Assembly: GCA_035458505.1 (NCBI GenBank)
Contig: DATHZS010000073.1
Location: 31,165 to 95,164 of the forward strand
Length of the DNA stretch: 64,000 nucleotides
Direction of reading: 5' to 3'
From: Anaerolineales bacterium
GTDB taxonomy: Bacteria; Chloroflexota; Anaerolineae; Anaerolineales; UBA11579
Shown here: positions 37,621 to 64,000 of the stretch, piece after piece
Layout of the letters: every line of letters begins with the position of its first letter
How positions within the stretch are numbered: position 1 is the first letter of the stretch
Notes under the pieces: generated by a model
Database searches by the model: none
Seen by the model: the letters and a program-made list of their open reading frames with translations, nothing else
What the model was told of the DNA's origin: nothing
Made by a program: the position numbers and the translations under genes

Positions 37621-37660
37621 TTGACACACCAATAACATCTGATATACTACCAATATATCA
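37621..37660 (+). promoter_or_regulatory. Candidate sigma70 promoter (TTGACA-16 nt-TATACT) overlapped by inverted repeat TGATATA-N7-TATATCA
   Basis: -35 TTGACA at 37621-26 and -10 TATACT at 37643-48. The 7-bp inverted-repeat arms at 37640-46 and 37654-60 overlap the -10 box. It lies about 30-40 nt upstream of the MetV-MetF start. Confidence 0.45.
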
Positions 37661-37686
37661 ATAACAACATATTACAGGATAATCTC

Positions 37687-39162
37687 ATGCCAATTTTCTC
37701 CCCCCGCAGATTCCAACACAGGTTCATGCCTGTTACGCGAGAAAACGAAACCTTTTCTGAGAAAACCTTAACCGCTGTCGAGGCAATGGTTAAAGGCATC
37801 TTGTTTGGATGCCGGATGTGCGGCAATTGTATTTTGCAGGAAACTGCTTACATCTGCCCAATGACCTGCCCCAAAGGTCTGCGAAATGGCCTGTGTGGTG
37901 GCGCGTCACCAGAACGATGCGAGGTAGACGCCACCCGCCCCTGCACCTGGTACAAGATCTACGAAAGGGCAGAAAAGATGGGCCGGCTGGACGCCCTGTT
38001 GGAAATCAATGCCCCGATTGACGGAAAACGGGCCGGAAAAGAGCAATGGTCTGAAGTGGTGCGCACCTGGAGGGAGGATGATAACAGTCCCAAATTCATT
38101 GAATTTGTCACTGACCGTGACAAATTCCAAAAGGACCTAGACAACTTTTTCTTTAGAATGCGCCAGCCGGATTGGTGGCAGGGAGATGCTGAATACCACC
38201 CTCCTCAAAATGAAGAACCCGTTTCTTTCCTGGAAGCAAGCCTGAGAAGTGGAGTATTCGTCACAACGGGAGAAATTGCTCCCCCGCTGGGCGCTTCCGG
38301 GGATATCATCCGTAAAAAGGGTGAAATGCTCCGAGACTATATCACGGCCGCCAATTTTACCGATAACGCCTCTGCCTCCGCGCGGATGAACAGCATGGCT
38401 TCCAGCAAAATTTCCATGGAAACCGGGGTTGAGCCTGTCATGCAGCTTCAGGCGAGAGATCGGAGCCGGGTGGTGATTGAATCGGATGCAATGGGTGCTG
38501 TGGGATTGGGGATTCATAATATCCTCTGCCTGAGCGGCGACCACCATTTCTTCGGCCCAGACCCAATGGCCCAGCCCAATCAATTTGATATGGATGCCAT
38601 ACAGGTGCTTTGGATGCTGCGGCGCATGCGAGACGAAAAGAAATATCTGGACGGGCGGTACATCAAAAATCCCCCCACGTTTTTCCTGGGAGCTGCCGGA
38701 TCTCCCTTTGGCGCACCGCCAAAATACGAAGCCATCCGGGCAGAAAAGAAAATCAATGCCGGGGCTCAATTCATGCAGACCCAGCCTATCTTCAATTATG
38801 AGAGATTCCTGGAATGGCTTGAAGCCCTGGACAAGCGAAATCTATTGGACAAAGTGTACCTGCTCCCAGGCATTATTCCTCTGAAAAGCGCCCAGGCAGC
38901 CCACTTCATGGCAGATGAAGTACCCGGTGTCTCTGTCCCAGCCTCTATTGTCAAACGGATGGACGAAGCCGGAGACAAAGATGGCCAGGCTGAAGAAGGT
39001 GTGCAGATCGCGTTGGAAATCATCGAGAAACTCAAAAACACTCCAGGCATTAACGGCATGCACGTCATGGCCGTCCACTGGGAAGCCATCGTACCCCGTT
39101 TGATTGAAGAATCAGGTGTTCCAAAGCCAAATAAAGAGCTCAGGAAACAGTTCGCCCATTAA
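37687..39162 (+). CDS. Methylenetetrahydrofolate reductase with fused N-terminal Cys-rich MetV-like domain
   Basis: The N-terminus (FGCRMCGNCILQETAYICPMTCPKGLRNGLCGG..CEVD..RPCTWY) matches the zinc-ribbon/FeS MetV-type domain. The C-terminal ~300 aa are a MetF-like TIM barrel (FVTTGEIAPP ... FTDNASA ... QLQARDR ... NILCLSGDH ... GAQFMQTQPIF). Confidence 0.7.
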   Translation: MPIFSPRRFQHRFMPVTRENETFSEKTLTAVEAMVKGILFGCRMCGNCILQETAYICPMTCPKGLRNGLCGGASPERCEVDATRPCTWYKIYERAEKMGRLDALLEINAPIDGKRAGKEQWSEVVRTWREDDNSPKFIEFVTDRDKFQKDLDNFFFRMRQPDWWQGDAEYHPPQNEEPVSFLEASLRSGVFVTTGEIAPPLGASGDIIRKKGEMLRDYITAANFTDNASASARMNSMASSKISMETGVEPVMQLQARDRSRVVIESDAMGAVGLGIHNILCLSGDHHFFGPDPMAQPNQFDMDAIQVLWMLRRMRDEKKYLDGRYIKNPPTFFLGAAGSPFGAPPKYEAIRAEKKINAGAQFMQTQPIFNYERFLEWLEALDKRNLLDKVYLLPGIIPLKSAQAAHFMADEVPGVSVPASIVKRMDEAGDKDGQAEEGVQIALEIIEKLKNTPGINGMHVMAVHWEAIVPRLIEESGVPKPNKELRKQFAH

Positions 39163-39270
39163 GCAATTTTGTCACTGACGGATAAGCATATCCACAAATA
39201 ATAAGGGAAGAGATACAATCTGTCCGTTGGTAACCCTAAACCATCTGACATCATTTCGAACGAGGAAACC

Positions 39271-40758: not shown

Positions 40759-40768
40759 CCAGGAAAGT

Positions 40769-42754
40769 TTACAACTTGGTCGTTAACTCCCCAATTGCCG
40801 TCACACGCACACGAAAGCTCTCGGCACCATCTGGAAGGATTTCTGTTTCCAGTTCCACCGTTTCTGCGCCAGCCAGTCTGGCTTGCTGATCGGCAGCTTC
40901 ACCCAGCCACCCGGAAGCATATTCCAAGGCTTCTTGTCCTGTGCCAAATATTTTTCGCCCTTGTTCTGATTGAAGAATGTACCCAACGGGGTAGCGATTT
41001 CGGATTTTCGGGTACACCCAGGCATCCTGATGAACAATCACCTTGCCCGCCACCGCACCAACCGCATTTGCCACCTCATAATGCGGCGGCAACAGCAGTT
41101 CGGTGTGCAGCAGTTCAGCAACTCGCGGGAGTAAAATCCCCGCCGGTGCGCCAATCCCTACAATCGGCATTTTAAGCCCAAGCTCACTGCGCAAATAGGG
41201 GTTTTTCCGGTAAAGGTTTTCCTCAAAAAGCCAGGCCCCCAGGCTGCGAACAGGTGCATACTCCGGCATCCGGTCCACACCCTGTCCTGTGATATACCTG
41301 ACAACCTCTTCCACGATGAGTTCCGCGATCCTCTCTCTCATCTGATGGATCAAACCCTCAACGTCAATCTGCATCAGCAAGGCAAATTTTTCAGCAGCCA
41401 TCCGAGCAGCTTCAACTACCCAGGGCGAAAATTCCCCGCTCAAGTGAAAGAGATCAGAGGGGGTTAGCGCAGCCCGTCCAACAATTTCTTCCCTGATCAG
41501 GGTCCCGCTGTCCAACTGCATCGGATGCATCACTTCCATCCTTTTGAGGATCACAGGTAATGGAAGCGGACCATCCTCCAGGATGGCAAGAACTCGCATG
41601 CTTCGATCGTTGTTGATCAAACGTGTTGGTTTACGCAGCAAAAACCAGTATTCAAAGTGGTCGATCGTAGGCCGCTGGGCAAATATGGCGGTGGTGAGAG
41701 ATTTCATTTGGTCCAGGACTGCCGGGTACCGGGAAGCCAGATAAGCCAAAGGAACAACCCGTTCAGGACCAATCTTCAACTCATTTTCCATATCCAGGCG
41801 CAGGAAGCTGTCGCCACCCAGGCCAATCGAACGGACATCTGCTGCCCGTACTGCGGTGTGGAACTCACCCACCGTGGTACCTGAGTCATTGATCTTCAAC
41901 CTGCCACGATCGAGAAGAGCGATATCTGTCGTGGTACCGCCAATATCTATCACCAGCGCCTTATCTACACCTGCCAGGAATCTGGCACCAATCGCACTCG
42001 CCGCCGGTCCAGAATGGACTGTCTCCACCGGGTGAGCCTTGACCTGGCTGGTCTTCATCAGCGATCCATCGCTGTGTACAACCATCAAAGGAGCCTGCAC
42101 CCCCCGGGCAGAGAGCGCTCCTTCGATCGAGGAAATGAATTCCTGCAGGATCGACAGCAGCGAAGCATTCAATGCTGCCGTGGTAGCCCTTTGGATCGAA
42201 TTGAGCTTGCTCGAGAGCTGGTGCCCCATCACCACTGGCTTACCCGTCTCCCTTAGAATTTCCTCCGCTGCCGCCTCCTCATGGGAGATATTAAAGGGGC
42301 TGAAATACCCTGAGATTGAAAAGGCTTCAATCTCAGGGCTCACATCCCGGGCTGTCTTGATAATACCTGAGAGGTCTAAAGGTGCCTGGGCTTCTCCGGT
42401 GAGGGTATGCCCACCCTTAAAGTAATAGTATTTTGGAGTGGCAAAACTGCCCTCAAAGTGGAAGTGCCTTACCAGTTCAGGATCATACCCAAGCAGGAAC
42501 AAAGCGACCGGGCGGCCTTTCCCTTCGGCAATCGCATTCGTCGCCAATGTGGTTGAGATCGAAACCAGCTTGATTCGCTCGCGTTGCGCTGGGAGCAGCG
42601 CATCCAGTGCATTCAGGATCCCTTCAGAGAGGTCTGGTTTTGTTGTAAGTGTCTTAGTGGTTTTGATCACTTCCTGGGTTTTAATATCAAGCAGCACCCC
42701 GTCCGTATAAGTCCCCCCGGTATCAATTCCCAAGACAAAATTTTGGCCGCTCAT
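40769..42754 (-). CDS. Hydantoinase/oxoprolinase A-like ASKHA-fold protein, paralog 1
   Basis: VLGIDTGGTYTDGVLLD (hydantoinase N-terminal phosphate-1 motif), VIDIGGTTTDIALL, GLGGDSFLRLD...KIGPERV and C-terminal IVGIGAPAG...VANAVGAVAG. No HyuB partner is in the window. Confidence 0.65.
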   Translation of the reverse strand: MSGQNFVLGIDTGGTYTDGVLLDIKTQEVIKTTKTLTTKPDLSEGILNALDALLPAQRERIKLVSISTTLATNAIAEGKGRPVALFLLGYDPELVRHFHFEGSFATPKYYYFKGGHTLTGEAQAPLDLSGIIKTARDVSPEIEAFSISGYFSPFNISHEEAAAEEILRETGKPVVMGHQLSSKLNSIQRATTAALNASLLSILQEFISSIEGALSARGVQAPLMVVHSDGSLMKTSQVKAHPVETVHSGPAASAIGARFLAGVDKALVIDIGGTTTDIALLDRGRLKINDSGTTVGEFHTAVRAADVRSIGLGGDSFLRLDMENELKIGPERVVPLAYLASRYPAVLDQMKSLTTAIFAQRPTIDHFEYWFLLRKPTRLINNDRSMRVLAILEDGPLPLPVILKRMEVMHPMQLDSGTLIREEIVGRAALTPSDLFHLSGEFSPWVVEAARMAAEKFALLMQIDVEGLIHQMRERIAELIVEEVVRYITGQGVDRMPEYAPVRSLGAWLFEENLYRKNPYLRSELGLKMPIVGIGAPAGILLPRVAELLHTELLLPPHYEVANAVGAVAGKVIVHQDAWVYPKIRNRYPVGYILQSEQGRKIFGTGQEALEYASGWLGEAADQQARLAGAETVELETEILPDGAESFRVRVTAIGELTTKL

Positions 42755-42783
42755 GGTTGAATATAAATTTCCCCTGGGGGACC

Positions 42784-44373
42784 CTAACTGCCCTGCTCAT
42801 CATCTAAGAAGGGGAAACCCATGCTCTCAACATACAACATCACAAAATTCGGGTCCTGGTCAAGATCTACCTGCCGTGCTTTTTGCGCGATCCTCACGCC
42901 CAATTCAAACCCTTCCTTGGTTAAGAATTTGGCTGCGCCTAATCCGGCGCCATTGGCAACTGTCTCGACTTTGTTGCGTGGGATATTCGGGATCATGCCA
43001 ATCTGCATCGTGGCATGAATGTCTACCTGCCCGCCAAAAGAACCAGTCAGCAAGATTTTATCAAGGTCGGCGGGGGTGAGCCCCAACTGCTGCATGAGGG
43101 TGTCCACTGCGGCCCGGATAGCCCCTTTGGCCTTCTGGAGCTCCCTGATATCCCATTGGGTCAGGGCAATATGACCCTGATCATCCAGACGAATGGCAGG
43201 CGCTCCTCTTTCCCCTATGAAGATTCTATCCTTCATAATCGGAGGGTTCTGATTGATTCGCCCGCTCTTCTCAATCAGACCGTATTTTACAAGCTCATAG
43301 ACCGCCGATAGCAGCCCTGATCCTGTCAGGCCAATCGGTGGCTCGTCATTGATGGTATTAAAGACAAAGTCCTCTCCTTCAACCTTTGCCTGCACGACTG
43401 CACCATCGACTGCCCTGGACCCGCATGAGATATTGACACCTTCAAAAGCCGGCCCGGCCGCTGTCGAGGCAGTCAGGATCTGGCTGCCGTCTGTGACCAG
43501 CACCTCTCCATTTGTGCCAAGATCAATTGCCACCATCGGGCCGGAAGGCTGATCAAATCCAAACTCAACCAGACAAGCCAAAGCATCTGACCCCACGAAT
43601 CCGCCGATTAGCGGCGGCAGCGACACCTGCATGGATTCCGGGAAGATGTTGTCCATGATTGGCGAGGCATCATAGATCGGATCACTTTGGTAAGGTTGGA
43701 ACGGCATTGCTCCCAGGCTGTTGACCGGGAGCTTGGCGATCAAATGGTGCATCGCCACATTCCCCACAATCGTGACGCGTGTGATGCGGTCGTAGAACCG
43801 TTTTCCAAGTTTCAGTGAATCAACCGCCTGGTTGATCGAAGCCAGGGCCAGTTTATGCAAGCGTTCAGTGTTTTTCGGGTTATCCAAGACAGCCCCAACC
43901 CGGGAGATGACATCCGCTCCAAAGGTGGTTTGCTGGTTCAGGGTGGCCGCTCCGGCACAAACTTCGCCTGTCGTCAGGTTGGTCAGGAAGGCTGCCACCG
44001 TGGTGGAACCCAAATCGATTGCCAACCCCAGCGGATCGTCCGTCCGCTTATAGGATGAGGAGCCGCGAAAACTTTTATTCGAATAAACGACAATGTGCGA
44101 GAGAATGATGCGGGCATCGTCTACCGCTTTTGCGCGGCAGGCAAGGCGTGTGTTCAGCGCCAGTTCTCCCGCCGTGAGGTGTTCTTCCTCAACTGCATCC
44201 GGAGGAATACTGCCTTCTTCAATGATCACCTTGCATTTACCGCAAGTGCCGCGTCCGGCACACGGTTGTTCAATTGGCAAACCAGTTTCCTGGATGGCAT
44301 CACCAATCAAGGTATCCGGGGAAACGGTGATATTCTTTTCTTCAGTTCCGTAAACGATTGTTAATTTTGGCAT
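42784..44373 (-). CDS. RACo-type corrinoid reductive activase (N-terminal 2Fe-2S ferredoxin + ASKHA ATPase)
   Basis: Plant-type ferredoxin cysteines (CAGRGTCGKCKV...RLACRA). ASKHA motifs follow (LAIDLGSTTVAAFL, VAIDLGTNGEVLV). Its length of ~530 aa is typical of corrinoid activation/regeneration proteins. Confidence 0.75.
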   Translation of the reverse strand: MPKLTIVYGTEEKNITVSPDTLIGDAIQETGLPIEQPCAGRGTCGKCKVIIEEGSIPPDAVEEEHLTAGELALNTRLACRAKAVDDARIILSHIVVYSNKSFRGSSSYKRTDDPLGLAIDLGSTTVAAFLTNLTTGEVCAGAATLNQQTTFGADVISRVGAVLDNPKNTERLHKLALASINQAVDSLKLGKRFYDRITRVTIVGNVAMHHLIAKLPVNSLGAMPFQPYQSDPIYDASPIMDNIFPESMQVSLPPLIGGFVGSDALACLVEFGFDQPSGPMVAIDLGTNGEVLVTDGSQILTASTAAGPAFEGVNISCGSRAVDGAVVQAKVEGEDFVFNTINDEPPIGLTGSGLLSAVYELVKYGLIEKSGRINQNPPIMKDRIFIGERGAPAIRLDDQGHIALTQWDIRELQKAKGAIRAAVDTLMQQLGLTPADLDKILLTGSFGGQVDIHATMQIGMIPNIPRNKVETVANGAGLGAAKFLTKEGFELGVRIAQKARQVDLDQDPNFVMLYVESMGFPFLDDEQGS

Positions 44374-44391: not shown

Positions 44392-45036
44392 TTAGTTTTC
44401 GATCAGCTTTTGCACCTTGAGATAAAAGCCCTGGACATGCTCTTTCATTCTGATTTCTGCCGCCTGGCTGTCCCCGCTGCGGATACTCTCGACCAGCCTG
44501 ACGTGCTCATGCACTGCCGAAGAGAGGAATTCCAATTTGGGCAAGGCCAGGTACCACAAACGCTGAGAAAGCCCAAAATATTTTTCCAGCGAATGGGCCA
44601 GATAATGGTTTCCGGAGGCCTTCGCAATCGCCTGGTGGAGTTTATGATCAAGATCAAACCAGGCCTCCTTGTCATCTGCCTTGATTTTTGACTGCTCCAG
44701 AACAAGGGCATCCATCACCAATAAATGATCAGCCGTGGCTCTTTGCGCGGCCAAACCCGCTGCCTGACTTTCCAGCCCGACACGCACCTCACTCAACATC
44801 TTCAAATCCTTCGGATCCAAATCTGCCACATACAAGCCGCCTTGCCGAGAGACAACCACAAGCTGATCGTGGACCAGCAGTTTCAGCGCTTCCCGGATGG
44901 GGGTGCTTCCCAGTCCAAAGATAGAAGAAAGTTCAGATTCATTGATCGCTGCACCGGGTTTGAGGGCGAGCGTATTGATCTGCTCCCTGAGTAACTGGTA
45001 TGCTTCCTGAGTATCTACGCCAATAAGATCCATCAT
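44392..45036 (-). CDS. GntR family transcriptional regulator (FadR/FCD subfamily), copy 1
   Basis: Winged HTH region (LKPGAAINESELSSIFGLGSTPIREALKLLVHDQLVV) followed by a helical FCD-like domain. The start is set to ATG 45036, preceded by GAGAGGAAAAA; the track ORF is longer. Confidence 0.75.
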   Translation of the reverse strand: MMDLIGVDTQEAYQLLREQINTLALKPGAAINESELSSIFGLGSTPIREALKLLVHDQLVVVSRQGGLYVADLDPKDLKMLSEVRVGLESQAAGLAAQRATADHLLVMDALVLEQSKIKADDKEAWFDLDHKLHQAIAKASGNHYLAHSLEKYFGLSQRLWYLALPKLEFLSSAVHEHVRLVESIRSGDSQAAEIRMKEHVQGFYLKVQKLIEN

Positions 45037-45055
45037 TTTTTCCTCTCTGGGGCTA

Positions 45056-47050
45056 TTATCCCGACAGGCGCGGGTTGCCGAATGCCTTTGCCCGAATTCT
45101 GTAGGTATCGAGACCATCTGAGGTTTCTTCAACCACCACCTGAGGTTGATCGGCACCCGACCGAAGCGCCGCATTCAGCGCAATTTCTCGGCAGGTTTCC
45201 TTGGCAGTAATCAGCGCGGTCTGCAATTCCTCAAACTCCAGCCGCTTACTGCTGGTTTGCACATAATACCCCAGCACGTCCAGACCTGTTCTGTCCAGCT
45301 TCGGGTAAATCAGAATTTCTTCCTCGACCATAATGCTCCCGGCAATTGCACCAACCGCATTGGCCACCTGATAATGATTGGGTAATACCAGCTCTACGTG
45401 CAGAATTTCGGACACTTTTTGCAGGAACATGCTGGCCGGCCCACCAATGCCAATGACCGGATACGACAGGACAAAGTTTGTATTAAGGTGAGGATGGTCT
45501 CGGGTTGCTGCATTTTTAAAAAACCAGGAATCCGCCGAGGATTTTTCCTGCTCGGGCAAGGTTTGTCCAGTAAGGAATTCAATCGTTGCCTTCAGGATCT
45601 TCTCTGTGACAGTTTGCCAGATCATGGCCTGGACCTCTTCTGGTTCTTTGAACAGGTAGTGGCTGAATGCCTTCAGGGCCATCTCGGAAGTTTCTGCATC
45701 CCAGGCGACAAATCGCTCATCACAATGCAGCAGGTCCGTTGGAGTAAACCCGGCCTTACCAAAAAATTCCTGCCTTAATAATTCCTCCGCACCAAGCTGC
45801 GATGGATGGAAAACCGACATTTTTTTCAGCAGGTCTGGCAAAGCGTGGGGCCCGTTTTGCAAAATCTGCAACAATTGCTTGTGCTTTGGGTTCTTCGATA
45901 AATCTTCATCCCCCGGCTCCCGGATCAGATACCAGTACTCCAGCCAATCTGGGGAGGACTGCTCCCAGGTTCGGCGGATGAGGGAACGGATCTGGCTTTT
46001 GACGATCGGATGTTGTTCTGCCAGATATGCCAGCGGGACGACCCGCTCCGGGCCGACCACAATATTCCCGTCCCGATTGATGCGAATTTGGCTGTCTCCA
46101 CCTAATCCAATCGAGAGCAGGTCGGCTGCCTTGACAGAAGTTGCATACCCCCCTACCGAGGCTCCTTCCTCACTGATTGTTACCGCTCCATCCATAATCA
46201 AAGCCAGGTCGGTAGTTGTTCCTCCCACATCGACAACAAAAGCATTGTCTATCTGAGACAAGAATCTCCCACCGATGGCACTTGCGGCTGGCCCAGAATG
46301 GATCGTCTCCACAGGAGTTCGGGCAGCAAATTCATCGCTCATCAAGGTGCCATCTCCGCGGACCACCATCAGTGGTGCAACAATCTTGCGCTTTTCCATG
46401 GCACGCTTGACAGCAATAATGAACGTTTGCAGCACAGCCAGCAGCGAAGCGTTCAGGGCTGCTGTGGTGGCGCGCTCCACCGACCCAAGTTTGGTAGACA
46501 GTTGATGCCCAAGGACGATCGGCAGGTTGCATACTCCCGAAATCGCCTCATAAGCCCGGTTTTCATGCTCAGGATTCAGCGGGGAAAAATAACTGGAAAC
46601 TGCGATCGCATCCACCTCATGTTTGATCTGAGCAGTTTTTTCCAGGATGCCTTTAAGATCCAATGCTTGCTTTTCCTGTCCATACAGGTTATGACCACCC
46701 TGAAAATAATAATGAAAGGGGGTGGCAAATTGATGAGCCATCTTAAAGTTCTCGATCAATTCCCGGTCATACCCAACCAGGAACAAGGCCACCCGTTTAC
46801 CTTTCCCCTCTGCGATGGCATTCGTCGCCAGCGTGGTAGACACCGAGACCATTTTTATCAGGGAAGGATCTTCGATCTGGATCCCGGCAATCACATTCTC
46901 GATGCCAATTGCAAAATCGCGTTTGGTTGTCAGGCTTTTTTGCGTTGCAAGGACTTGATGAGAATCGTAGTCCAGGAGTACACCATCGGTGAATGTCCCC
47001 CCGGTATCAATCCCCAGCACAAGGTTCTGGTGCTTGTTTGTATCAGTCAA
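45056..47050 (-). CDS. Hydantoinase/oxoprolinase A-like ASKHA-fold protein, paralog 2
   Basis: It is collinear with paralog 1 along its full length (LVLGIDTGGTFTDGVLLD, STTLATNAIAEGKGKRVALFLVGYD, VVDVGGTTTDLALI, VANAVGAIAG). By eye the two share roughly half or more of their residues. Confidence 0.65.
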   Translation of the reverse strand: MTDTNKHQNLVLGIDTGGTFTDGVLLDYDSHQVLATQKSLTTKRDFAIGIENVIAGIQIEDPSLIKMVSVSTTLATNAIAEGKGKRVALFLVGYDRELIENFKMAHQFATPFHYYFQGGHNLYGQEKQALDLKGILEKTAQIKHEVDAIAVSSYFSPLNPEHENRAYEAISGVCNLPIVLGHQLSTKLGSVERATTAALNASLLAVLQTFIIAVKRAMEKRKIVAPLMVVRGDGTLMSDEFAARTPVETIHSGPAASAIGGRFLSQIDNAFVVDVGGTTTDLALIMDGAVTISEEGASVGGYATSVKAADLLSIGLGGDSQIRINRDGNIVVGPERVVPLAYLAEQHPIVKSQIRSLIRRTWEQSSPDWLEYWYLIREPGDEDLSKNPKHKQLLQILQNGPHALPDLLKKMSVFHPSQLGAEELLRQEFFGKAGFTPTDLLHCDERFVAWDAETSEMALKAFSHYLFKEPEEVQAMIWQTVTEKILKATIEFLTGQTLPEQEKSSADSWFFKNAATRDHPHLNTNFVLSYPVIGIGGPASMFLQKVSEILHVELVLPNHYQVANAVGAIAGSIMVEEEILIYPKLDRTGLDVLGYYVQTSSKRLEFEELQTALITAKETCREIALNAALRSGADQPQVVVEETSDGLDTYRIRAKAFGNPRLSG

Positions 47051-48748: not shown

Positions 48749-49456
48749 CTAGCGCAGGAAGGCTTCCTGGGTTAGTGTGCCACCAGGTGGCACCACCAGG
48801 AACTCGCTGTCTAATTGATCTAAGTTTGCCGCGACTTCGACAAGCCGCCGGACATACTGATCTGAACCAAGGATTTCTTCATACACCATTCCCCATCGCT
48901 CACAATACGCAGCAACCTCTTTCGCACTTGGGCGATAATTGAAAAGGTCAGCTTCCTGATGAGCGATGAAGGCTAATCGTTTGTAATTCTGGTATTGAGT
49001 ATCCATGATCCATTCAGCCTCTTCAGGACCATATTTCTCACTGATCTCATGGTACTCTTTCAACGGGTTGCTGCCGGATTCTAACCAGCCTTTGGTCAGG
49101 TAGTAGGTCCCCGGCTCACTGGTGAACTCCTGCATGTAGCGTGAATAGGAACCCAACAAAATCGCGATGCAATCATCTGTTCTGGGGATCAGCAAAGTAT
49201 GGTTTCTCGCTTTGATCCCGTTTAACCCGTTGCCGCATAACCCATAACCCAACACGATCAGACTCGGAGTATCGATCTCATCGATTCTGCTCTGGACTGT
49301 GAAAGCCAGCTTCGCCGGAACCCGGTGCAAGCCGTAGTCCAGGAAAGTGATCTGAGAAGTCATTTCTTTCGGCAAAAAGTGGTCGATCAACCCCTCAAAC
49401 ACTTTGCACGAGATCACTACTACCGGTAATTTATCGTGAGAAGTCATGGATGGCAT
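48749..49456 (-). CDS. DUF1638 domain protein
   Basis: VVVISCKVFEGLIDHFLP...ITFLDYGLHRVPAKL...LIVLGYGLCGNGL.G......LLIPRTDDCIAILLGS matches the DUF1638 pattern commonly found beside corrinoid methyltransferase genes. The start is ATG 49456 or 49447. Confidence 0.55.
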   Translation of the reverse strand: MPSMTSHDKLPVVVISCKVFEGLIDHFLPKEMTSQITFLDYGLHRVPAKLAFTVQSRIDEIDTPSLIVLGYGLCGNGLNGIKARNHTLLIPRTDDCIAILLGSYSRYMQEFTSEPGTYYLTKGWLESGSNPLKEYHEISEKYGPEEAEWIMDTQYQNYKRLAFIAHQEADLFNYRPSAKEVAAYCERWGMVYEEILGSDQYVRRLVEVAANLDQLDSEFLVVPPGGTLTQEAFLR

Positions 49457-52280: not shown

Positions 52281-52922
52281 TTATACTAAATGCTCTTTAA
52301 TATTTTGCTGAAAGTTTGAAATGTGGGTTCGAATAGCTTTCTCAGCGCGCTGAGAATCACCAGCCTTGATCGCTGACACAATATCCACATGTTCACGGAT
52401 TCCTATCTCAATCAATTTCATCGTCCGCAACCCGTAGTACCAGATGCGTTGGGACATGAAGTAGTATCTCTTGAGGTCAGCTTGCAGATATTGGTTTTGG
52501 CTTGCTTCATAGCTTAAAAAATGAAACCCTCTATCGAGGTCCATCACCTCGTAGGGGGTTTGCAAACTGTTCAGATTTTGTTCGTCTACCATCGCCTCCA
52601 GCTGAGCGATCTGCTCTGGGGTGGCCCTGTTCGCAGCCAAACGTATCACCAATGCTTCCAATTCCATCCGCACTTCGTAAATATGGTTGATGTCCCTGAT
52701 CTCAATTGGCGTGACAAAGATTCCCCGTCGGGGGCTTACCGTTACAAATCGCTCCACCTGCAAGCGCTTGAGTGCTTCCCTGATCGGGGTCCGTCCAAGG
52801 CCAAGGGAATCCATCAGGACAGGTTCCTGGATCAACGAGCCTGGCTCCATCTCCGCCCGGATAATTTTCTCCAAGATCAGTTTATAAGCTCTATCAGCAT
52901 CCGTTAAGCTTGCTGTTTGCAT
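52281..52922 (-). CDS. GntR family transcriptional regulator (FCD subfamily), copy 2
   Basis: Winged HTH region (MEPGSLIQEPVLMDSLGLGRTPIREALKRLQVERFVTV) followed by a helical FCD domain. The start is ATG 52922; the track has a TTG at 52943. Confidence 0.75.
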   Translation of the reverse strand: MQTASLTDADRAYKLILEKIIRAEMEPGSLIQEPVLMDSLGLGRTPIREALKRLQVERFVTVSPRRGIFVTPIEIRDINHIYEVRMELEALVIRLAANRATPEQIAQLEAMVDEQNLNSLQTPYEVMDLDRGFHFLSYEASQNQYLQADLKRYYFMSQRIWYYGLRTMKLIEIGIREHVDIVSAIKAGDSQRAEKAIRTHISNFQQNIKEHLV

Positions 52923-52961: not shown

Positions 52962-53834
52962 TCATCCCTCGTCATCAGCTTTTCGTTTTCGATAAGCTTG
53001 AATCCAATTCATTCCAAATTCATCCCTCCCCATGGACAGATCTGAAGCCAAAACAGCTGTGCTGATCTCCCTGACAAGGGGATTGGTGATTGGGCAGGTC
53101 ATTCCGGCATAGATTGCCAGGGCGATGAAGGTTGCATTGATGTATTTCCGGTCGGGCATGCCAAAGGAGATGTTGCTGGCACCCATCGTGATGTTCACCC
53201 CAAATTCTTTGACCACCATTCCAATGGTATCCAGGGCAATCTTACCCGCATTGCTGTCGGCACCCATCGTCAGGGCCAGTGGATCGATGATCACATCTTC
53301 GGGTCCAATTCCGAGTTTACCGGCTCGCTCGATGATCTTCGCGGCGACCTTCAAACGCTGCTCAGCTGTCTCGGGAATACCATCATCATCCATACACAGG
53401 CCAATCACGGCAGCCCCGTATTCTTTTGCCAGAGGGAGAACAGATGACAGTGATTTCTCCTCCCCATTTGTGGAATTGATCAACGCTTTGCCCTCATAAA
53501 TTGAAAGTGCTTCCTTCAAAGCAATCGGATCGGCAGTGTCAATACACAGCGGGATATCTGTCGTCTCCATCACAATCTGCATCACCTGTTTGAGCAGCGC
53601 CGGTTCATCTGCACCGGGAACGCCCGCATTCACGTCCAGCACTTTGGCTCCCGCAGCAACCTGGGAGGTGGCATCTTTTCTGACGATATCGAAATCGCCA
53701 GCCTGAAGTGCTGCCAGCACCAGTTTGCGGCCCGTCGGATTGATCCGCTCTCCGATGATAACTGTGGGGTTTCCCCGTTGAATCTCAACGGTTTGAGATT
53801 TTGATCTCAGAATAGTGGTTAGGTCTTTTGCCAT
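52962..53834 (-). CDS. Methyltetrahydrofolate:corrinoid methyltransferase (pterin-binding, DHPS-like barrel; MtgA/AcsE/MetH-pterin-domain-like)
   Basis: IIGERINPTGRK, VLDVNAG, PLCIDT, LINS and GASNISFG are the pterin-binding-domain hallmarks. Confidence 0.75.
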   Translation of the reverse strand: MAKDLTTILRSKSQTVEIQRGNPTVIIGERINPTGRKLVLAALQAGDFDIVRKDATSQVAAGAKVLDVNAGVPGADEPALLKQVMQIVMETTDIPLCIDTADPIALKEALSIYEGKALINSTNGEEKSLSSVLPLAKEYGAAVIGLCMDDDGIPETAEQRLKVAAKIIERAGKLGIGPEDVIIDPLALTMGADSNAGKIALDTIGMVVKEFGVNITMGASNISFGMPDRKYINATFIALAIYAGMTCPITNPLVREISTAVLASDLSMGRDEFGMNWIQAYRKRKADDEG

Positions 53835-54435: not shown

Positions 54436-55761
54436 TTGACATCCGAAAAAATCATTAAAAACTATTTGATAATTGCCGGGCTATATACCCTGTCGGCGTC
54501 TCTGATCTGGGGTGTAAACACCCTGTTTTTAATTGACGCAGGGCTGCAAATCTTTGAAGTATTTCTCGTAAATTCAATATTCACTGCCGCCATGGCATTA
54601 TTTGAGATACCGACCGGCGTTTTGGCTGATACCAGCGGAAGGCGGGTCTCTTTTTTGCTCAGTCTGGTCATCTTAGCATTTGGAACTCTTGGATATGTTG
54701 CTGTGGACTGGGCAAACGGCGGACTGATCTGGTTTGGGATTACTTCAGTGATCCTGGGCTTAGGATTCACCTTTTATTCGGGAGCGGTGGAAGCGTGGCT
54801 CGTAGATGCCCTGGCAGCCACTGATTTTCCCGGAAATCTGGACCGGGTTTTTGCCCGAGGGGGCCTGGTGACAGGTTTCGCCATGCTGGTTGGAACGATT
54901 GGAGGCGGCCTGCTTGGTGAAATTTCCTTAGCGGCCCCATTCTTGTTGCGGGCTGCTTTGCTGTTCGTCCTCTTTGTGATTGCGCTGAGAGGAATGCACG
55001 ATATCGGTTACCAGCCTCGTGCGATCACACTTTCTGATATTCCATCTGAAATTCAGCGGGTGACCAAAAACAGTATCACCTTTGGCTGGAAAAACAAATC
55101 CCTGCGCCTGATTATCGTCGCGGGGTTGATCCAAAGCAGCTTTTTTGCCTGGGCATGGTACGCCTGGCAGCCTTATTTTTTAGAACTCTTAGGGCGCGAA
55201 GCCATCTGGGTAGCCGGAGTGATTGCCGCCCTGATCTCTTTGGCCATCATGGCGGGGAACAGCATTGTAGAATACCTGACCCGTTTTTGCGGGCGCAGGA
55301 CGACCATGCTCTTATGGGCCGCCGCCATCTTTTCGATTGCCATGATCGGGGTTGGGCTCACTAGTTCCTTCTGGGTGGCGATTTTCCTGCTGCTGCTGGC
55401 CATGGTCGCATCAGGGGTTACTACCCCAGTCAGGCAGGCACTCATCCACCGCCTAATCCCTTCCGAACAGCGAGCTACGATTGTGTCGTTTGATTCCATG
55501 GTGGCCAGCGGGGGGTCGATGGTCGGCCAGTCCAGCCTCGGGTATATCGCGCAAGCCAGATCATTTGGGAGCGGGTATTTTTATGGCGGGCTCTTCACAG
55601 GTTTAATTTCCCTGGTATGGCTGCTCTTCCGCGCCCGAAATGATGCGTCTGATTTCTTTGCCGGCCAGCAGGCTGGTGAGGATGCCATCTGCGCGGCTCA
55701 AGGTCTGCCGTCGATATCAGCCGTGGATGCCAATCCAATCAATTCATTGATCTCCGAATAA
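54436..55761 (+). CDS. MFS transporter
   Basis: 12-TM layout with a motif A-like GVLADTSGRRVSFLLS. It uses a TTG start preceded by GAAGGAG. Confidence 0.7.
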   Translation: MTSEKIIKNYLIIAGLYTLSASLIWGVNTLFLIDAGLQIFEVFLVNSIFTAAMALFEIPTGVLADTSGRRVSFLLSLVILAFGTLGYVAVDWANGGLIWFGITSVILGLGFTFYSGAVEAWLVDALAATDFPGNLDRVFARGGLVTGFAMLVGTIGGGLLGEISLAAPFLLRAALLFVLFVIALRGMHDIGYQPRAITLSDIPSEIQRVTKNSITFGWKNKSLRLIIVAGLIQSSFFAWAWYAWQPYFLELLGREAIWVAGVIAALISLAIMAGNSIVEYLTRFCGRRTTMLLWAAAIFSIAMIGVGLTSSFWVAIFLLLLAMVASGVTTPVRQALIHRLIPSEQRATIVSFDSMVASGGSMVGQSSLGYIAQARSFGSGYFYGGLFTGLISLVWLLFRARNDASDFFAGQQAGEDAICAAQGLPSISAVDANPINSLISE

Positions 55762-55814: not shown

Positions 55815-57056
55815 TCAGAGTGCCTCCAGAGCCTTGTTGAGGTCGCGGATGATATCTTCCACGTTCTCCAACCCCACCGATAACCGGATCAAGCCATCAT
55901 CAATTCCAGCTGATTGACGTTCTTCAGGAGTCATGTGTTCATGGGTGATCGTCGGCGGGTGCATGCAAATCGTCCGGCTGGTGCCAAACGTGACGGCATG
56001 CACGATGAGCTCAAAATGATCCATGACCGCGGCAGCCCCAGACATTCCACCAGGGACAATGAAAGACAACAATCCGCTGCCTGCCTTCATCTGTCGCGCG
56101 GCCAGCTCATGTTGGGGGTGATTGGCCAATCCGGGGTAATTGACATGCTGCACCTTGGGATGTTGATGGAGGAACTCAGCGACCTGCAATGCGTTGCTGC
56201 TGTGCCTTTCCATCCTTAAGGATAGGGTTTCAAGATACTGAAGGGTGAGCCAGGCTTCAAACGGCTGCATAATTGCCCCAATGAATTCGGTCGTATTCCA
56301 TCGGATGTCTTCAACCAGGGCTTCAGGCCCCACCACTGCTCCGCCAAGGACACTCGCATTCCCGCTGAGGAACTTGGTCAGCGACAGCAAAACAATATCT
56401 GCCCCCAGGTCCATCGGGGTCTGTAAAGCTGCAGTTGCTGTCGTATTATCCACCATTAAAGGGACACCGCGGGCATGCGCAATTTCTGCCACCACAGAAA
56501 TATCAGTAACAAATAAGGTAGGGTTGCTGGGAGTTTCCACCCACACAAGCCGGGTTTTGTCATCAATCGCCTGATCCCAGGCCTCAGGTTGAGCCGGATC
56601 AGCCACAAAGCGACTCGTTACCCCACAGCGCTCCGGCAAGATGGCGGCGGCTTGCTTATATCCTTCCCCGAAGATATTCAACGAGGTGACGATGTTATCT
56701 CCTGGCCGGGCGATCGTGGAGATCAGGCTGAAGAGGGCCTGAGAGCCCGATCCAGCTGAAACCGCTCCTTCTCCCCCTTCCAGGGCGGCCAGGCGTTCCT
56801 CCAGGATGCTGACGGTTGGAGTTTTACTGCGGCCGTAAATATAATCCGGAAACTTCTCAAAGTGCTCATAGGGATACGTCATGGACTGGACGATTGGCGG
56901 GACAAAAGCCCGGAACTGGTCCACATTTTTCAATGGGTGAAATCCCGCATGCAGTGCTCTGGTATCAAAGCCCAGGTGTTTATCCCTGGGTTTCGTTTGC
57001 TGCTCCTGGGGGGAATATTTCCATGGGTCGCGCATAAAGAAAGGTTTTTTTTTCAT
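55815..57056 (-). CDS. Cys/Met-metabolism PLP-dependent enzyme (O-acetylhomoserine sulfhydrylase / methionine gamma-lyase family)
   Basis: Family layout, with PLP-lysine region VLLSLTKFLSGN and C-terminal LIRLSVGLENVEDIIRDL. Confidence 0.7.
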   Translation of the reverse strand: MKKKPFFMRDPWKYSPQEQQTKPRDKHLGFDTRALHAGFHPLKNVDQFRAFVPPIVQSMTYPYEHFEKFPDYIYGRSKTPTVSILEERLAALEGGEGAVSAGSGSQALFSLISTIARPGDNIVTSLNIFGEGYKQAAAILPERCGVTSRFVADPAQPEAWDQAIDDKTRLVWVETPSNPTLFVTDISVVAEIAHARGVPLMVDNTTATAALQTPMDLGADIVLLSLTKFLSGNASVLGGAVVGPEALVEDIRWNTTEFIGAIMQPFEAWLTLQYLETLSLRMERHSSNALQVAEFLHQHPKVQHVNYPGLANHPQHELAARQMKAGSGLLSFIVPGGMSGAAAVMDHFELIVHAVTFGTSRTICMHPPTITHEHMTPEERQSAGIDDGLIRLSVGLENVEDIIRDLNKALEAL

Positions 57057-58688: not shown

Positions 58689-58700
58689 AAATCTCAATAT

Positions 58701-59354: not shown

Positions 59355-59379
59355 TCACAAAATTAAGAGGAGAACGTCT

Positions 59380-60819: not shown

Positions 60820-60820
60820 C

Positions 60821-63094
60821 GTGAAATCAGCTTCCGAAATCCGCCCAATTGGGGGAGAGTCAAAACGCCTCGACGCGCACGAAAAAGTGACCGGGGAAGC
60901 CCGGTATGTTGAGGATATCTCGATGCCTGGCTTATGCTATGCCAGGGTATTTCGCTGCCCTCACCATCATGCAAGGCTGATTTCTCTCGATACCCAAAAA
61001 GCATGCGCACAAGCTGGGGTGATTCGGGTCGTCACCGCGGAGGATATTCCGGGAGAAAATGGATTTTCAGAATACAGCAAAGAAGAGCCTCTGCTGGTCT
61101 CCGTTGGAATGGTCGCAAAAATGAAGGGAGCGCCCATTGCACTGGTTGCGGCCGATTCTCCTGAACATGCACGCGCAGGGGCACAGGCAATCAGGGCTGA
61201 TTTTGAGGTTTTACCGCATGTATTTGAAGCTGATGCCGCCTTGTTAGAGGATGGAATGCAAATCTACCCAACTGGGAATATCCTCAATACCTATTCCGTC
61301 GCCCATGGAGATCCCAAGCAAGCTTTTTCCGACTCAGATATCACGATTAAAGCCGAATATCACACCTCCTATCAGGAGCACTCTGCATTGGAACGCGAAT
61401 CAGCATTAGGGTATCTTGATCAGGATGGGAGGGTAACCGTCCTGTCTGGCACCCACGAACCGCATTGGCAACAACACTGGATCGCCAGGACTTTGCAGGT
61501 TGATGCATCACAGGTGCGTTTCATCACCCCCCATATTGGCGGGTCGTTTGGCGGCAAGCAAGACCCCTGGCCGCATATCGCGGTGGGCCTATTGGCCTAC
61601 CTGATAAAAAAACCAGTCCGCCTGATTTTTTCCAGGCCTGAATCTTTCCTGGCATCTCCCAAACGACATCCCTATACGATGGCATACAAAGTCGGGACAA
61701 CCCAGACGGGTATCCTGACCGGTCTTCAGGTGCAAATCAATTGTAATACTGGGGCATATGATGCGGATGGTTTCCACATCCCGGAATATGCGACGGTCGC
61801 TGCCGGCGGCGCTTACCGCTGGCAAGGAGCCGACATCCGGGCACAGAGCATTTACACCAATGGTCCAAAATGCGGGCAATTTCGCGGTTTTGGCACACCC
61901 CAATCAACCTTTGCCCTGGAATGTGCACTGGACGAGCTTGCGCAAAAATTGGAAAAAGATCCAATTAAATTCCGTCTGAAAAACATCATCACCCAAGGGG
62001 AAAACACTTTCCTTGGCTACCCTATCGCCGAATCCCTGGGTTACAGGCAGGTTTTGGAAACACTCGATGCCCCCTATCGACAATTCCAACATGAGGCGAT
62101 GGAGTTCAACCACCAGAACCAGGTGGGTCCGTACCGCAAAGGAGTCGGGGTTGCCGGGATGTGGTACCGTTTCGGAAAATCGGGTTCCCTGCGGGTTGAA
62201 GCGCATGCAGAACTCGCACCAGACGGTCATTTCGTGATCTACTGTTCTGTCCCGGATTATGGCCAGGGCATCAGCACAGTGATGGCTCAGCTCGGTGCCC
62301 AAACACTGGGAGTTTCCAGGGATTTGGTCGAGCTGGTCAATGCAGATACCGGTTTAACACCAGACAGCGGTGTCCAGGGGGCCTCCAGGGCAACCTACTG
62401 GGTTGGCAATGCAGTTGTCCGGGCTGCTAAAACCCTGAAAGAGAATATCTTTGGAAATGTGGCTGAACTATTGGATTGCCATCCAGCTGATCTGTTGATT
62501 TCAGGTAAGCAGATCCTTTCCTCCAGCCAGCCAAACAATCGACTCTCGCTGGAGGAAGTGGCCAGCCAATTTGAGGCATTATCCATACCGCGCAGGGTGG
62601 CAGAATTTTTTGATGCATCTGCCCTCTTTCCACAGGAAACACGCCCCAGATACACCCCGCAATTCGTCACCGGGGCACATTTGGCTGAGGTGTTGGTGGA
62701 TCTTCAAACCGGGGAAGTATGCGTCACACGCTATGTGGCGGTGCATGATGTTGGGAAGGTGATCAACTTACCCGGGGCTGAAGGACAGGTTGAAGGTGCC
62801 GTGATCATGGGGATTGGCGCTGCGCTCAAAGAGGAGTACCTGCCGGATGTTACAACCGGCTTCAGTAACTATATCCTGCCTATGGCCAATGAAATACCAG
62901 AGATAAAAACCATATTTGTCGAAGTACCCAGTTTGCACGGCCCTTTAGGTGCCAAAGGTCTGGGAGAAACCGCGATGCTGCCATCCACACCAGCGGTGAT
63001 CAATGGCGTCTCACGAGCCATCGGAGTACGCATCCGCCAGATTCCCGCAACGCCGGAACGAATCGTTCGGGCGATACTGAACATAGACTCATAA
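60821..63094 (+). CDS. Xanthine dehydrogenase/aldehyde oxidase family molybdopterin-binding large subunit
   Basis: N-terminal a/b-hammerhead (IGGESKRLDAHEKVTGEARYVEDI), GGSFGGK, and C-terminal GAKGLGETAMLPSTPAVINGV containing the catalytic Glu. The start is GTG 60821, 2 nt after the upstream stop. Confidence 0.75.
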   Translation: MKSASEIRPIGGESKRLDAHEKVTGEARYVEDISMPGLCYARVFRCPHHHARLISLDTQKACAQAGVIRVVTAEDIPGENGFSEYSKEEPLLVSVGMVAKMKGAPIALVAADSPEHARAGAQAIRADFEVLPHVFEADAALLEDGMQIYPTGNILNTYSVAHGDPKQAFSDSDITIKAEYHTSYQEHSALERESALGYLDQDGRVTVLSGTHEPHWQQHWIARTLQVDASQVRFITPHIGGSFGGKQDPWPHIAVGLLAYLIKKPVRLIFSRPESFLASPKRHPYTMAYKVGTTQTGILTGLQVQINCNTGAYDADGFHIPEYATVAAGGAYRWQGADIRAQSIYTNGPKCGQFRGFGTPQSTFALECALDELAQKLEKDPIKFRLKNIITQGENTFLGYPIAESLGYRQVLETLDAPYRQFQHEAMEFNHQNQVGPYRKGVGVAGMWYRFGKSGSLRVEAHAELAPDGHFVIYCSVPDYGQGISTVMAQLGAQTLGVSRDLVELVNADTGLTPDSGVQGASRATYWVGNAVVRAAKTLKENIFGNVAELLDCHPADLLISGKQILSSSQPNNRLSLEEVASQFEALSIPRRVAEFFDASALFPQETRPRYTPQFVTGAHLAEVLVDLQTGEVCVTRYVAVHDVGKVINLPGAEGQVEGAVIMGIGAALKEEYLPDVTTGFSNYILPMANEIPEIKTIFVEVPSLHGPLGAKGLGETAMLPSTPAVINGVSRAIGVRIRQIPATPERIVRAILNIDS

Positions 63095-63158
63095 ACGATA
63101 CGATTGGATCTTAGCGATAGGTTCAAGCACATTGGTTTATTTTCGAGGAGGAAAAAAT

Positions 63159-64000
63159 ATGAGACCCCAAATATCTATCCCAACACTGAAACCCAGACTG
63201 CAGATGGTATCTGATGAACAAGTGCGGGAAATTCATTATTCCACACTACAGATCCTGAGCCAGACTGGCATGGAAATGCAGGACCCCCGCGGGCGAGAGC
63301 TGCTGCTCGAGGCCGGCGCGTGGGAATCAAACGGCCGGATTAAGATCCCGGAAAATCTGGTGACCGATTCGATCGACAAAGCCCCTTCCCGAATTCCCAT
63401 GTACGACCGTTTGGGTAATCTGACGATGCCGCTCGAACTTGGCAAGGTCTTCTTTGGCATGGGTTCAGATACGACCTTCACAATCGATCTTGAAACCGGG
63501 AAACGCAGAATGGCGGTTGCAGATGATGTGGAAAACTTTGCCCGACTGGGAGACGCATTGGAGAACATCGACTTCATCATGTCCATGGGAAGCCCCTCGG
63601 ATGTGCCAGCCGAAAACCTCTACCTGCATTCCTTCATCCGAATGCTGCGCGGCTCCGTAAAACCGAATGTATACACCGCAGAAAACCGCAGGGACATGGA
63701 GGATATGTACCGGATTGCCGCTGCAGTGGTGGGAGGAGAACAGACCCTGCGGGAAAAGCCGATCATGCTGCATTACGCCGAACCGATCTCGCCACTGTTC
63801 ATCATTGAAGAATCCCTCCAGAAGATTATCTTCTGCGCGGAGAAAGGCATCCCCAGTGCCTATATCCCATCCCCCAACACCGGCGGAGGTGGGCCAATCA
63901 CCGTAGCTGGTGCAGTCGCATTAGGCAATGCCGAATGCCTGATCGGCTTGATCCTCTCTCAACTCGTGAGGCCGAACGCCCCATACCTGTATGGGATGAA
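63159..64000 (+). CDS. MttB-family methyltransferase, non-Pyl so far, paralog 6 (3' end beyond window)
   Basis: ATG 63159 follows GAGGAGG. My manual translation (MRPQISIPTLKPRLQMVSDEQVREIHYSTLQILSQTGMEM...NIDFIMSMGSPSDV...AEPISPL...) is open to the window end. It is absent from the ORF track because no stop is reached. Confidence 0.7.
   Translation, partial: MRPQISIPTLKPRLQMVSDEQVREIHYSTLQILSQTGMEMQDPRGRELLLEAGAWESNGRIKIPENLVTDSIDKAPSRIPMYDRLGNLTMPLELGKVFFGMGSDTTFTIDLETGKRRMAVADDVENFARLGDALENIDFIMSMGSPSDVPAENLYLHSFIRMLRGSVKPNVYTAENRRDMEDMYRIAAAVVGGEQTLREKPIMLHYAEPISPLFIIEESLQKIIFCAEKGIPSAYIPSPNTGGGGPITVAGAVALGNAECLIGLILSQLVRPNAPYLYGM

Follow-up and report, generated by a model that had tools for sequence, protein, structure and literature searches.

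What do six divergent methyltransferases of one family, encoded next to a small set of corrinoid proteins and their helpers, do for an uncultured Anaerolineales bacterium? The question is raised by the 37.6–64-kb part of a 64-kb window from such an organism (the window being the whole stretch of DNA that was analysed), which encodes six MttB-family methyltransferases (MT1s; labelled M1–M6), two corrinoid proteins (CoP1 and CoP2), one methyl-corrinoid:tetrahydrofolate methyltransferase (MT2), one RACo-type activator and two hydantoinase-A-like ATPases (HydA1 and HydA2). The island is a composite of a metVF–M1 unit, a conserved core operon and add-on modules with further MT1s, and we put the probability that these three layers form a catabolic, corrinoid-dependent methyl-transfer island at about three in four. 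In the textbook scheme of the MttB superfamily, methyl groups pass from an MT1 to a corrinoid protein and on to an MT2 and tetrahydrofolate (THF), with an ATP-dependent activase. From protein families, gene order, conservation and active-site signatures we infer a corresponding flow for the island: each MT1 would move a methyl group from its own methylated substrate to a Co(I) corrinoid protein, the single MT2 would pass it from the corrinoid protein to THF, and a MetV-MetF fusion would oxidise methyl-THF to methylene-THF. The RACo-type activator, probably aided by a DUF1638 protein, would re-reduce Co(II) corrinoid using ATP and an electron, and the HydA-like ATPases would be integral partners of the core.

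The six MT1s, and the MetV-MetF fusion that precedes them, are encoded as follows (aa, amino acids).

37687–39162, plus strand: fusion of MetV-like (DUF5981) and MetF (MTHFR) domains, 491 aa; PF12225 95 bits, PF02219 108 bits
39271–40758, plus strand: M1, MtgB-like MT1, 495 aa; PF06253 669 bits
47203–48705, minus strand: M2, core MT1, 500 aa; PF06253 336 bits
50134–51594, minus strand: M3, core MT1, 486 aa; PF06253 301 bits
57116–58555, minus strand: M4, accessory MT1, 479 aa; PF06253 274 bits
59380–60819, plus strand: M5, accessory MT1, 479 aa; PF06253 323 bits
63159–64000, plus strand: M6, MT1 cut by the window end (280 aa inside, 483 aa in full; L002:13780-15231 in the parent contig); PF06253 151 bits for 280 aa

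Domains were called with Pfam at gathering scores (25 bits for PF06253), and names were judged against NCBIfam curated cut-offs. A sequence-only reading of this DNA had taken the six open reading frames (ORFs) for old, pyrrolysine (Pyl)-free members of the MTTB family, and on these points it proved correct. The PF06253 profile matched all six at 151–669 bits (E values 1e-44 to 1e-201), and its coverage in the five complete MT1s was ∼21–499 of 500 positions. All six proteins are full-length, M6 being 483 aa long in the parent contig, and their pairwise identities of 27–39% mark them as mutually distant paralogs. None of the ORFs has a stop at the column aligned with the pyrrolysine of Methanosarcina barkeri MttB, where M1–M6 carry F, C, C, S, C and A; TAG is the ordinary stop codon of M1, M3 and the RACo and DUF1638 genes, and no tRNA gene of any kind, including tRNA-Pyl, was found within the 64-kb window. 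Scores of the MT1s against TIGR02369, the Pyl-MttB equivalog, were 200–407 bits, under the 525-bit cut-off. The parts count of the earlier reading was also right by Pfam (two corrinoid proteins, one MT2, one RACo, one MetV-MetF and three GntR/FCD regulators); its list lacked HydA1, HydA2, the DUF1638 protein, an MFS transporter, a Cys/Met-metabolism pyridoxal phosphate (PLP) enzyme and the large subunit of a Mo hydroxylase. No equivalog-level NCBIfam name was obtained for any MT1, corrinoid protein, activase, PLP enzyme or Mo enzyme, and only MT2 passed its cut-off. The island proteins are already in public records (HSG26225–HSG26241), as "trimethylamine methyltransferase family protein" and similar, and the same island lies on contig JBFFQJ010000001.1 of GCA_041573535.1, the window being its reverse strand.

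M1 resembles the characterised glycine betaine methyltransferase MtgB. It is 49% identical to the protein of PDB entry 4YYC, presumably from Sinorhizobium meliloti, and 46% to MtgB of Desulfitobacterium hafniense, aligned end to end; sequence comparison with 2QNE, 9YCE (both from the D. hafniense MtgB/MtgC/MtgA system) and 4YYC gave E values of 1e-130 to 1e-149 over residues ∼15–490. Mutagenesis and a ligand-bound structure have shown that MtgB binds betaine via Y97, F356, R312 and H348 (Picking et al., PMC13080624). Of these residues, R312 binds the acidic group and is conserved across the characterised quaternary-amine members MtcB, MtpB, MthB and MtyB (PMC13080624). We used these published active-site residues as a proxy for comparison with MtpB, MtcB, MtyB and MthB. 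M1 keeps three of the four, Y97, R312 and H348; F356 is replaced by Gly, as in 4YYC, and the Pyl-aligned residue is Phe, versus Leu in MtgB. By its identity to MtgB and the three kept residues, M1 is MtgB-like and most likely acts on glycine betaine or a close carboxylate betaine. Its gene lies 108 bp downstream of metV-metF on the same strand, and the MetV-MetF protein is Cys-rich at its N terminus, with eight Cys in the first 90 residues.

The earlier analogy with MtgB, MtpB, MtcB and MtyB thus holds for M1 only and fails for M2–M6, which have no Arg equivalent to MtgB R312. In a neighbour-joining tree M2–M6 form a deep clade of their own, and of the four betaine-binding residues they keep H348 only. 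The R312 column reads Y, W, F, W and W in M2–M6, and the active-site signatures (the four betaine-binding columns together with the Pyl column) are S-Y-C-H-G in M2, P-W-C-H-(A/G) in M3, S-F-S-H-G in M4, S-W-C-H-G in M5 and S-W-A-H-G in M6. These signatures are stable across species: M2 orthologs, mostly 69–84% identical, carry S-Y-C-H-G (Cys at the Pyl position, Tyr for R312) in 58 of 59 cases, and M3 orthologs, at 67–87% identity, carry theirs in 51 of 54, with Cys at the Pyl position in 58/59 and 52/54, respectively. A profile of M2–M5 matched 14,905 MTTB-family clusters of a representative library. Among the 142 best-scoring representatives, the R312 column was aromatic in 128 (F in 73, W in 37, Y in 18), with Arg outside the eight commonest residues listed, and Cys was the commonest residue (66) in the Pyl column. 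Those named members of these clusters that we looked up all come from metagenome-assembled genomes (MAGs) of uncultured Anaerolineae, Deltaproteobacteria, Hodarchaeota and Bipolaricaulota. By sequence, then, M2–M6, five of the six MT1s, fall into a large clade that is uncharacterised and has neither pyrrolysine nor the betaine-binding Arg. As the Arg of quaternary-amine enzymes is missing, the substrates of M2–M6 may belong to a different class.

Pyl-MttB of M. barkeri (7XCL) aligns with M2–M6 over the full length at 27–31% identity, shares an aromatic residue where MtgB has R312, and has the same G-x-[S/T]-D-[A/S]-K motif around the Pyl site. In contrast to Pyl-MttB, M2–M6 have no in-frame UAG, carry Cys, Ser or Ala in place of pyrrolysine, and have His at the MtgB-H348 position, where Pyl-MttB has Tyr. 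A closer kinship of M2–M6 to Pyl-MttB than to MtgB was considered and rejected: phmmer prefers 7XCL for M2 (E value 5e-61 over residues ∼15–490, from sequence), but by BLAST M2–M6 are 26–31% identical to MtgB, 4YYC and Pyl-MttB alike.

The core operon runs on the minus strand from 53834 down to 40769 (∼13 kb), in the order MT2, GntR, CoP2, M3, CoP1, DUF1638, M2, HydA2, GntR, RACo, HydA1. Gaps between its genes are 1–43 bp, except for 152 bp between M2 and HydA2. The genes other than M2 and M3 are listed here in order of coordinates.

40769–42754, minus strand: HydA1, hydantoinase-A-like ASKHA ATPase, 661 aa; Hydant_A_N and Hydantoinase_A; last gene of the core operon
42784–44373, minus strand: RACo-type activator, 529 aa; Fer2, Raco_middle and RACo_C_ter
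44392–45174 (maximal ORF), minus strand: GntR/FCD regulator 1; Pfam GntR and FCD
45056–47050, minus strand: HydA2, hydantoinase-A-like ASKHA ATPase, 664 aa, by Pfam; immediately downstream of M2
48749–49447, minus strand: DUF1638 protein, 232 aa; PF07796 137 bits; gene call in the parent contig
49476–50117, minus strand: CoP1, corrinoid protein, 213 aa; B12-binding_2 and B12-binding
51627–52259, minus strand: CoP2, corrinoid protein, 210 aa; B12-binding_2 and B12-binding
52281–52922, minus strand: GntR/FCD regulator 2, 213 aa, by Pfam; gene call in the parent contig
52962–53834, minus strand: MT2, 290 aa; Pterin_bind; PRK07535; first gene of the core operon

With the HydA-like protein as query, species-representative genomes yielded 461 related stretches, of which we compared the best 80. 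The hosts of these 80 loci are Anaerolineae and other Chloroflexota, apart from ∼7 Desulfobacterales/deltaproteobacterial MAGs. The same gene order recurs in most of them, and three metagenomic contigs have the same core order. MttB genes stand beside the HydA-like gene in 75 of the 80 loci, a GntR gene (after HydA2) in 73, corrinoid proteins in 61, RACo in 45 and DUF1638 in 40; loci in which core genes were not seen are mostly short contigs. Orthologs of HydA1 (56–66% identity) occur in 14/80 loci, and those of M2 and M3 are better conserved than HydA2 (59–67%). The core is a vertically conserved 11-gene operon, present in Anaerolineae and some Desulfobacterales. Accordingly, the hub of six MT1s, two carriers, one MT2 and one activase that the sequence-only reading had described stands as a count and not as a set of equal MT1s: two MT1s, two corrinoid proteins, the MT2 and RACo form the core, which always includes a HydA-like ATPase and in most cases DUF1638, and to which four further MT1s are added.

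The cofactor-handling proteins of the core fit their assigned families. Both CoP1 and CoP2 combine a B12-binding_2 cap with a B12-binding domain and have the DLHDIG motif with the His ligand, at residues 100 and 99, respectively. The best NCBIfam match of CoP1 was MtgC, below the cut-off (223 versus 370 bits), and the island corrinoid proteins together scored 223–236 bits there, which sets them apart from MtgC of D. hafniense. MT2 reached 305.8 bits against PRK07535 (cut-off 259 bits). In RACo the [2Fe-2S], middle and ASKHA domains are all above their Pfam cut-offs, with Cys at 38, 44, 47 and 79, and the protein falls below the NCBIfam cut-offs for AcsV and RamA. DUF1638 has been tied genetically to B12 reactivation along with a RamA-like protein (PMC5764234), and it is induced on N-osmolytes in Ruegeria (PMC12478193). 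Taken together, DUF1638, a RamA-like activase, a pterin methyltransferase that works in both directions and a PLP enzyme of the Cys/Met family recall the split methionine synthase of roseobacters (MtgBCDE), and the island might be read as such an anabolic system instead of one for methyl catabolism. We consider this very improbable, as the island holds no homocysteine S-methyltransferase (MtgE/MetH N-terminal) domain and both the MetVF adjacency and the six MT1s point to methyl oxidation.

What might the core demethylate? Its two MT1/CoP pairs probably handle either a pair of related methyl donors or consecutive steps of one demethylation series. A cluster of similar layout is known from DCMF ('Ca. 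Formimonas warabiya'), in which nine genes (Ga0180325_114734-42), strongly induced on glycine betaine, encode CoP (210 aa), MT1 (485), CoP (210), MT1 (488), a HydA-like protein (668), MT2, an MtgB-type MT1 (471) and two BCCT transporters; Sporomusa ovata and 'Ca. Frackibacter' have loci syntenic to this cluster (PMC9768040). The stretch CoP2 (210), M3 (486), CoP1 (213), DUF1638, M2 (500), HydA2 (664) of the core has the same order and sizes, apart from the intervening DUF1638 gene; the DCMF cluster, with its two BCCT betaine transporters, lacks DUF1638, RACo and a second HydA. Its authors proposed that the multiple MT1/CoP pairs serve betaine and dimethylglycine and that one MT2 serves both (PMC9768040).

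Following that proposal, the core could be a line for one substrate, in which an MtgB-type enzyme takes the first methyl group of glycine betaine and the next demethylations, of dimethylglycine and sarcosine, fall to M3/CoP2 and M2/CoP1. The HydA-like protein would help with these non-quaternary amines, and the other MT1s would be unrelated passengers on carriers encoded elsewhere. Related genomes speak for it to some extent. There, a further MT1, ∼40% identical to M1, often heads the module, usually beside the core; in 19 of 22 cases its signature is Y-R-L-H-Y/F, which is canonical for MtgB. The two tandem MT1/CoP pairs nearly always have an MtgB-signature gene as a neighbour. The identically arranged DCMF cluster is induced by glycine betaine, DCMF demethylates betaine to dimethylglycine and sarcosine, and the idea was raised by the DCMF authors themselves (PMC9768040). 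Genes of the DAO family in 15/80 loci and a weak, sub-cut-off match to sarcosine oxidase A3 in 6/80 point the same way. However, M2 and M3 carry Tyr and Trp for the Arg that binds the carboxylate, a group still present in dimethylglycine and sarcosine; no betaine transporter of the BCCT or ProX type is encoded in the window; a literature search gave no dimethylglycine- or sarcosine-specific MttB member; and the link to DCMF is one of gene order and sizes, not of sequence. We therefore regard a single-substrate line as possible but rather doubtful.

Related loci differ in what flanks the core. Among the 80, the flanking families are an EamA transporter (33 loci), a DAO-family flavin adenine dinucleotide (FAD) oxidase (15), a YbaK/tRNA_edit-domain protein (15), a CBS-pair protein (13), Liv-type ABC permeases (∼9) and an ornithine cyclodeaminase/mu-crystallin protein (7). 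The weak sarcosine-oxidase-A3 match mentioned above belongs to a Pyr_redox_2 plus BFD protein. Of these families only the CBS protein has a counterpart near the island, just past M6, where the parent contig continues with the CBS protein and an Opp-type ABC transporter. Two ∼264-aa "families" in the related loci were dismissed as antisense-ORF artefacts. Upstream of the island, at a distance of 3 kb, are the genes of a Liv-type ABC transporter (29557–34610, minus strand), namely a binding protein, two permeases and two probable ATPases. They are not orthologous to the Liv genes flanking related loci (25–57% identity, and 29% for the binding protein), and the transporter was rejected as a conserved partner. 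No gene upstream of 37.6 kb belongs to the methyl-transfer system. Next to the core, across a 601-bp gap and divergent from it, stands the MFS transporter gene; the MFS and EamA genes of the window have no counterpart in the 80 related loci, which makes the MFS transporter a doubtful member of the system. Within the core, the maximal ORF of GntR regulator 1 shares 119 bp with the 3′ end of HydA2. As the orthologs are ∼215–221 aa long, the true start is probably internal, and GntR1 and HydA2 would then nearly abut.

The HydA-like ATPases belong to a family with >7,900 homologs. Stand-alone members, often two paralogs per locus, sit in tight linkage with the MttB/corrinoid operons of many Chloroflexota and of some Desulfobacterales, and the HydA-like ATPase is an obligate companion of the core. 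HydA1 and HydA2 are 46% identical over their full length, and both DxGGT (ASKHA nucleotide) motifs are invariant in 21 homologs. With an AlphaFold2 model of HydA2 (predicted local distance difference test score 78), Foldseek returned full-length matches at template modelling scores of ∼0.55 and 15–17% identity to A/beta/gamma subunits of acetone carboxylase, acetophenone carboxylase, N-methylhydantoinase and caprolactamase. Hydantoinase-type equivalog scores were all far below cut-off. A Hydantoinase_B partner was found neither in the window nor as a recurrent family in the 80 loci, and because of this missing B partner we do not take the HydA-like proteins for ordinary hydantoinases.

Two roles can be weighed for these ATPases. 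They may activate a substrate at the expense of ATP, by analogy with MthK, which primes choline for MthB in Eubacterium limosum (PMC12155760). The MthB/MthK system is alike in having an MttB-family MT1 and an ATP-using enzyme in one cluster (PMC12155760); unlike HydA, MthK is serine-kinase-like, with another fold than hydantoinase-A. The other role would be cofactor maintenance, that is, corrinoid loading, exchange or reactivation together with RACo and DUF1638. HydA1 and HydA2 flank RACo and are ASKHA ATPases like its C-terminal domain, the lower Foldseek matches include the RACo structures 3ZYY and 4C1N, there are weak N-terminal Pfam/NCBIfam matches to MutL/GlmL, the glutamate mutase accessory protein, and the B subunit is missing. 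By far the best structural matches, however, are the substrate-phosphorylating A subunits of acetone/acetophenone carboxylase, N-methylhydantoinase and caprolactamase, and MthK makes a substrate-activating kinase a proven part of one MttB-family pathway (PMC12155760). Cofactor maintenance is thus a serious contender that we nevertheless think is probably not the answer.

Beyond the core, M4, M5 and M6 lie in add-on modules, with the following companions; the MFS gene is listed with them.

54436–55761, plus strand: MFS transporter, 441 aa; MFS_1
55815–57056, minus strand: Cys/Met-metabolism PLP enzyme of the methionine-gamma-lyase family, 413 aa; PF01053 395 bits
58755–59354, plus strand: GntR/FCD regulator 3, 199 aa, heading the M5 operon, by Pfam; gene call in the parent contig
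60821–63094, plus strand: large subunit of a Mo hydroxylase of the xanthine dehydrogenase family, 757 aa; Ald_Xan_dh_C, MoCoBD_1 and MoCoBD_2

The PLP enzyme follows M4 at a distance of 59 bp; among NCBIfam models it matches those of methionine gamma-lyase best, with every score below cut-off. In locus L094, an ortholog of M4 at 66% identity (P0224) shares its operon with an ABC transporter of the SBP_bac_5/Opp type, a PLP enzyme of the same Cys_Met family and a DAO oxidase. In GCA_041551075.1, from the same species, the M4 gene (L004:5967-7406) is split into two calls, of 447 and 30 aa, which points to a frameshift, a stop codon or a fault of assembly in that copy. The Mo-hydroxylase gene starts 1 bp after M5 and is followed by M6. 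Its best NCBIfam match is XdhA, below cut-off, and its PDB matches include the alpha subunit of 4-hydroxybenzoyl-CoA reductase, aldehyde oxidoreductase and nicotinate dehydrogenase. After a 49%-identical relative of M5 (P0241, locus L097) comes a complete Mo hydroxylase (large, FAD and Fe-S subunits) with an OTCase-family gene, and another locus (L090) repeats the order MT1, Mo enzyme, MT1.

These pairings suggest, at the level of sequence, that M4–M6 have distinct substrates whose demethylated products would feed the gamma-lyase (M4) and the hydroxylase (M5/M6). With neither a corrinoid protein nor an MT2 in their own modules, M4–M6 probably rely on those of the core, as in the MtqC/MtqA/RamQ hub of E. 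limosum. The earlier statement that most of the substrates cannot be named from sequence still stands: the gene pairings give leads and no named substrate. Its preference for different substrates over redundancy is also upheld. If all six MT1s instead acted on one substrate, for example glycine betaine, their common Pfam family and neighbourhood would fit, and little else: the six do not collapse into one characterised substrate clade; the paralogs are mutually distant and show five different active-site signatures; M2 and M3 are each ∼70–87% conserved across species yet <40% identical to each other; M2, M3, M4 and M5 each have their own orthologs and distinct conserved neighbours; and separate GntR regulators head separate modules. 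We give such redundancy hardly any credence.

Several observations weigh against the three-layered catabolic island as we propose it. M2–M6 are without the Arg that every characterised quaternary-amine MT1 has, and M1 carries Gly at F356, a position at which the F356L exchange in MtgB raised the Km several-hundred-fold (PMC13080624). The Mo-hydroxylase large subunit is complete, but the island encodes no FAD or Fe-S partner subunit; the M5/Mo-hydroxylase link does not reach M5 relatives at 44% identity, which are orphans without a Mo enzyme; and a 47%-identical M6 relative has a corrinoid protein of its own. Sharing of CoP1 and CoP2 by M4–M6 is an assumption, and the rest of the MAG could encode more corrinoid proteins. 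Orthology to the DCMF cluster, finally, is a matter of gene order and protein sizes.

A bolder extension of the favoured reading is that M2/M3 and the HydA-like ATPases represent a widespread, Pyl-independent and ATP-assisted demethylation of methyl donors other than acidic quaternary amines. The M2/M3 substrates could then be either dimethylglycine and sarcosine or free methylamines, with HydA activating them at the expense of ATP, as MthK does with choline. N-methylated heteroaromatics (trigonelline, methylpurines) would be the substrates of M5 and M6, with products hydroxylated by the adjacent Mo enzyme, and M4 would act on a methionine-related methyl donor, with a product cleaved by the adjacent gamma-lyase. 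We consider this reading unlikely.

The concept of such a hub is not new. In E. limosum, MtpB, MtcB and MtyB share MtqC, MtqA and RamQ, with substrate-specific induction, and several non-Pyl MT1s thus funnel methyl groups via a shared carrier, MT2 and ATP-dependent activase into methyl-THF, much as proposed here (PMC8604678). In E. limosum the parts are scattered in separate clusters, whereas here they lie in one island; its MT1s keep the carboxylate-binding Arg that five of the six MT1s lack here; and no HydA-like or DUF1638 partner has been described there. DCMF likewise has a multi-MT1 cluster with two CoPs and one MT2 (PMC9768040). The DCMF genome holds 82 MttB paralogs, and genomes with dozens are known. 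The finding made by the sequence-only reading is therefore genuine and its general reading right, yet the type of system was already known and the genes were already annotated at family level.

Interest lies in the chemistry that the clade may hold. Non-Pyl MttB homologs number in the thousands and only a handful of substrates, of betaine type, are known. A few hundred species-level genomes have related HydA-like loci. At their centre is a well conserved operon with two MT1s and two carriers whose enzymes lack the hallmark residues of characterised members. Its substrates, once found, would fill a gap in the anoxic turnover of methylated nitrogen (possibly sulfur or heteroaromatic) compounds, a turnover that would bypass methylamine release to methanogens, and would reveal the chemistry that stands in for pyrrolysine or for the betaine-binding site. 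The pairings of M4 with the gamma-lyase and of M5–M6 with the Mo hydroxylase are the leads to such substrates.

Elsewhere in the window, three long ORFs had no Pfam match at E ≤ 0.001: 6134–7549 (plus strand, 471 aa), 9391–10689 (plus strand, 432 aa) and 17038–19206 (minus strand, 722 aa). The island contains no cobalamin riboswitch or other Rfam element. The sole Rfam match in the window is a c-di-GMP-II-GAG riboswitch aptamer (RF03169) at 35505–35609 on the plus strand, with 41.4 bits against a gathering score of 40 bits, located ∼180 bp upstream of an endonuclease/exonuclease/phosphatase-family gene (35793–37013).

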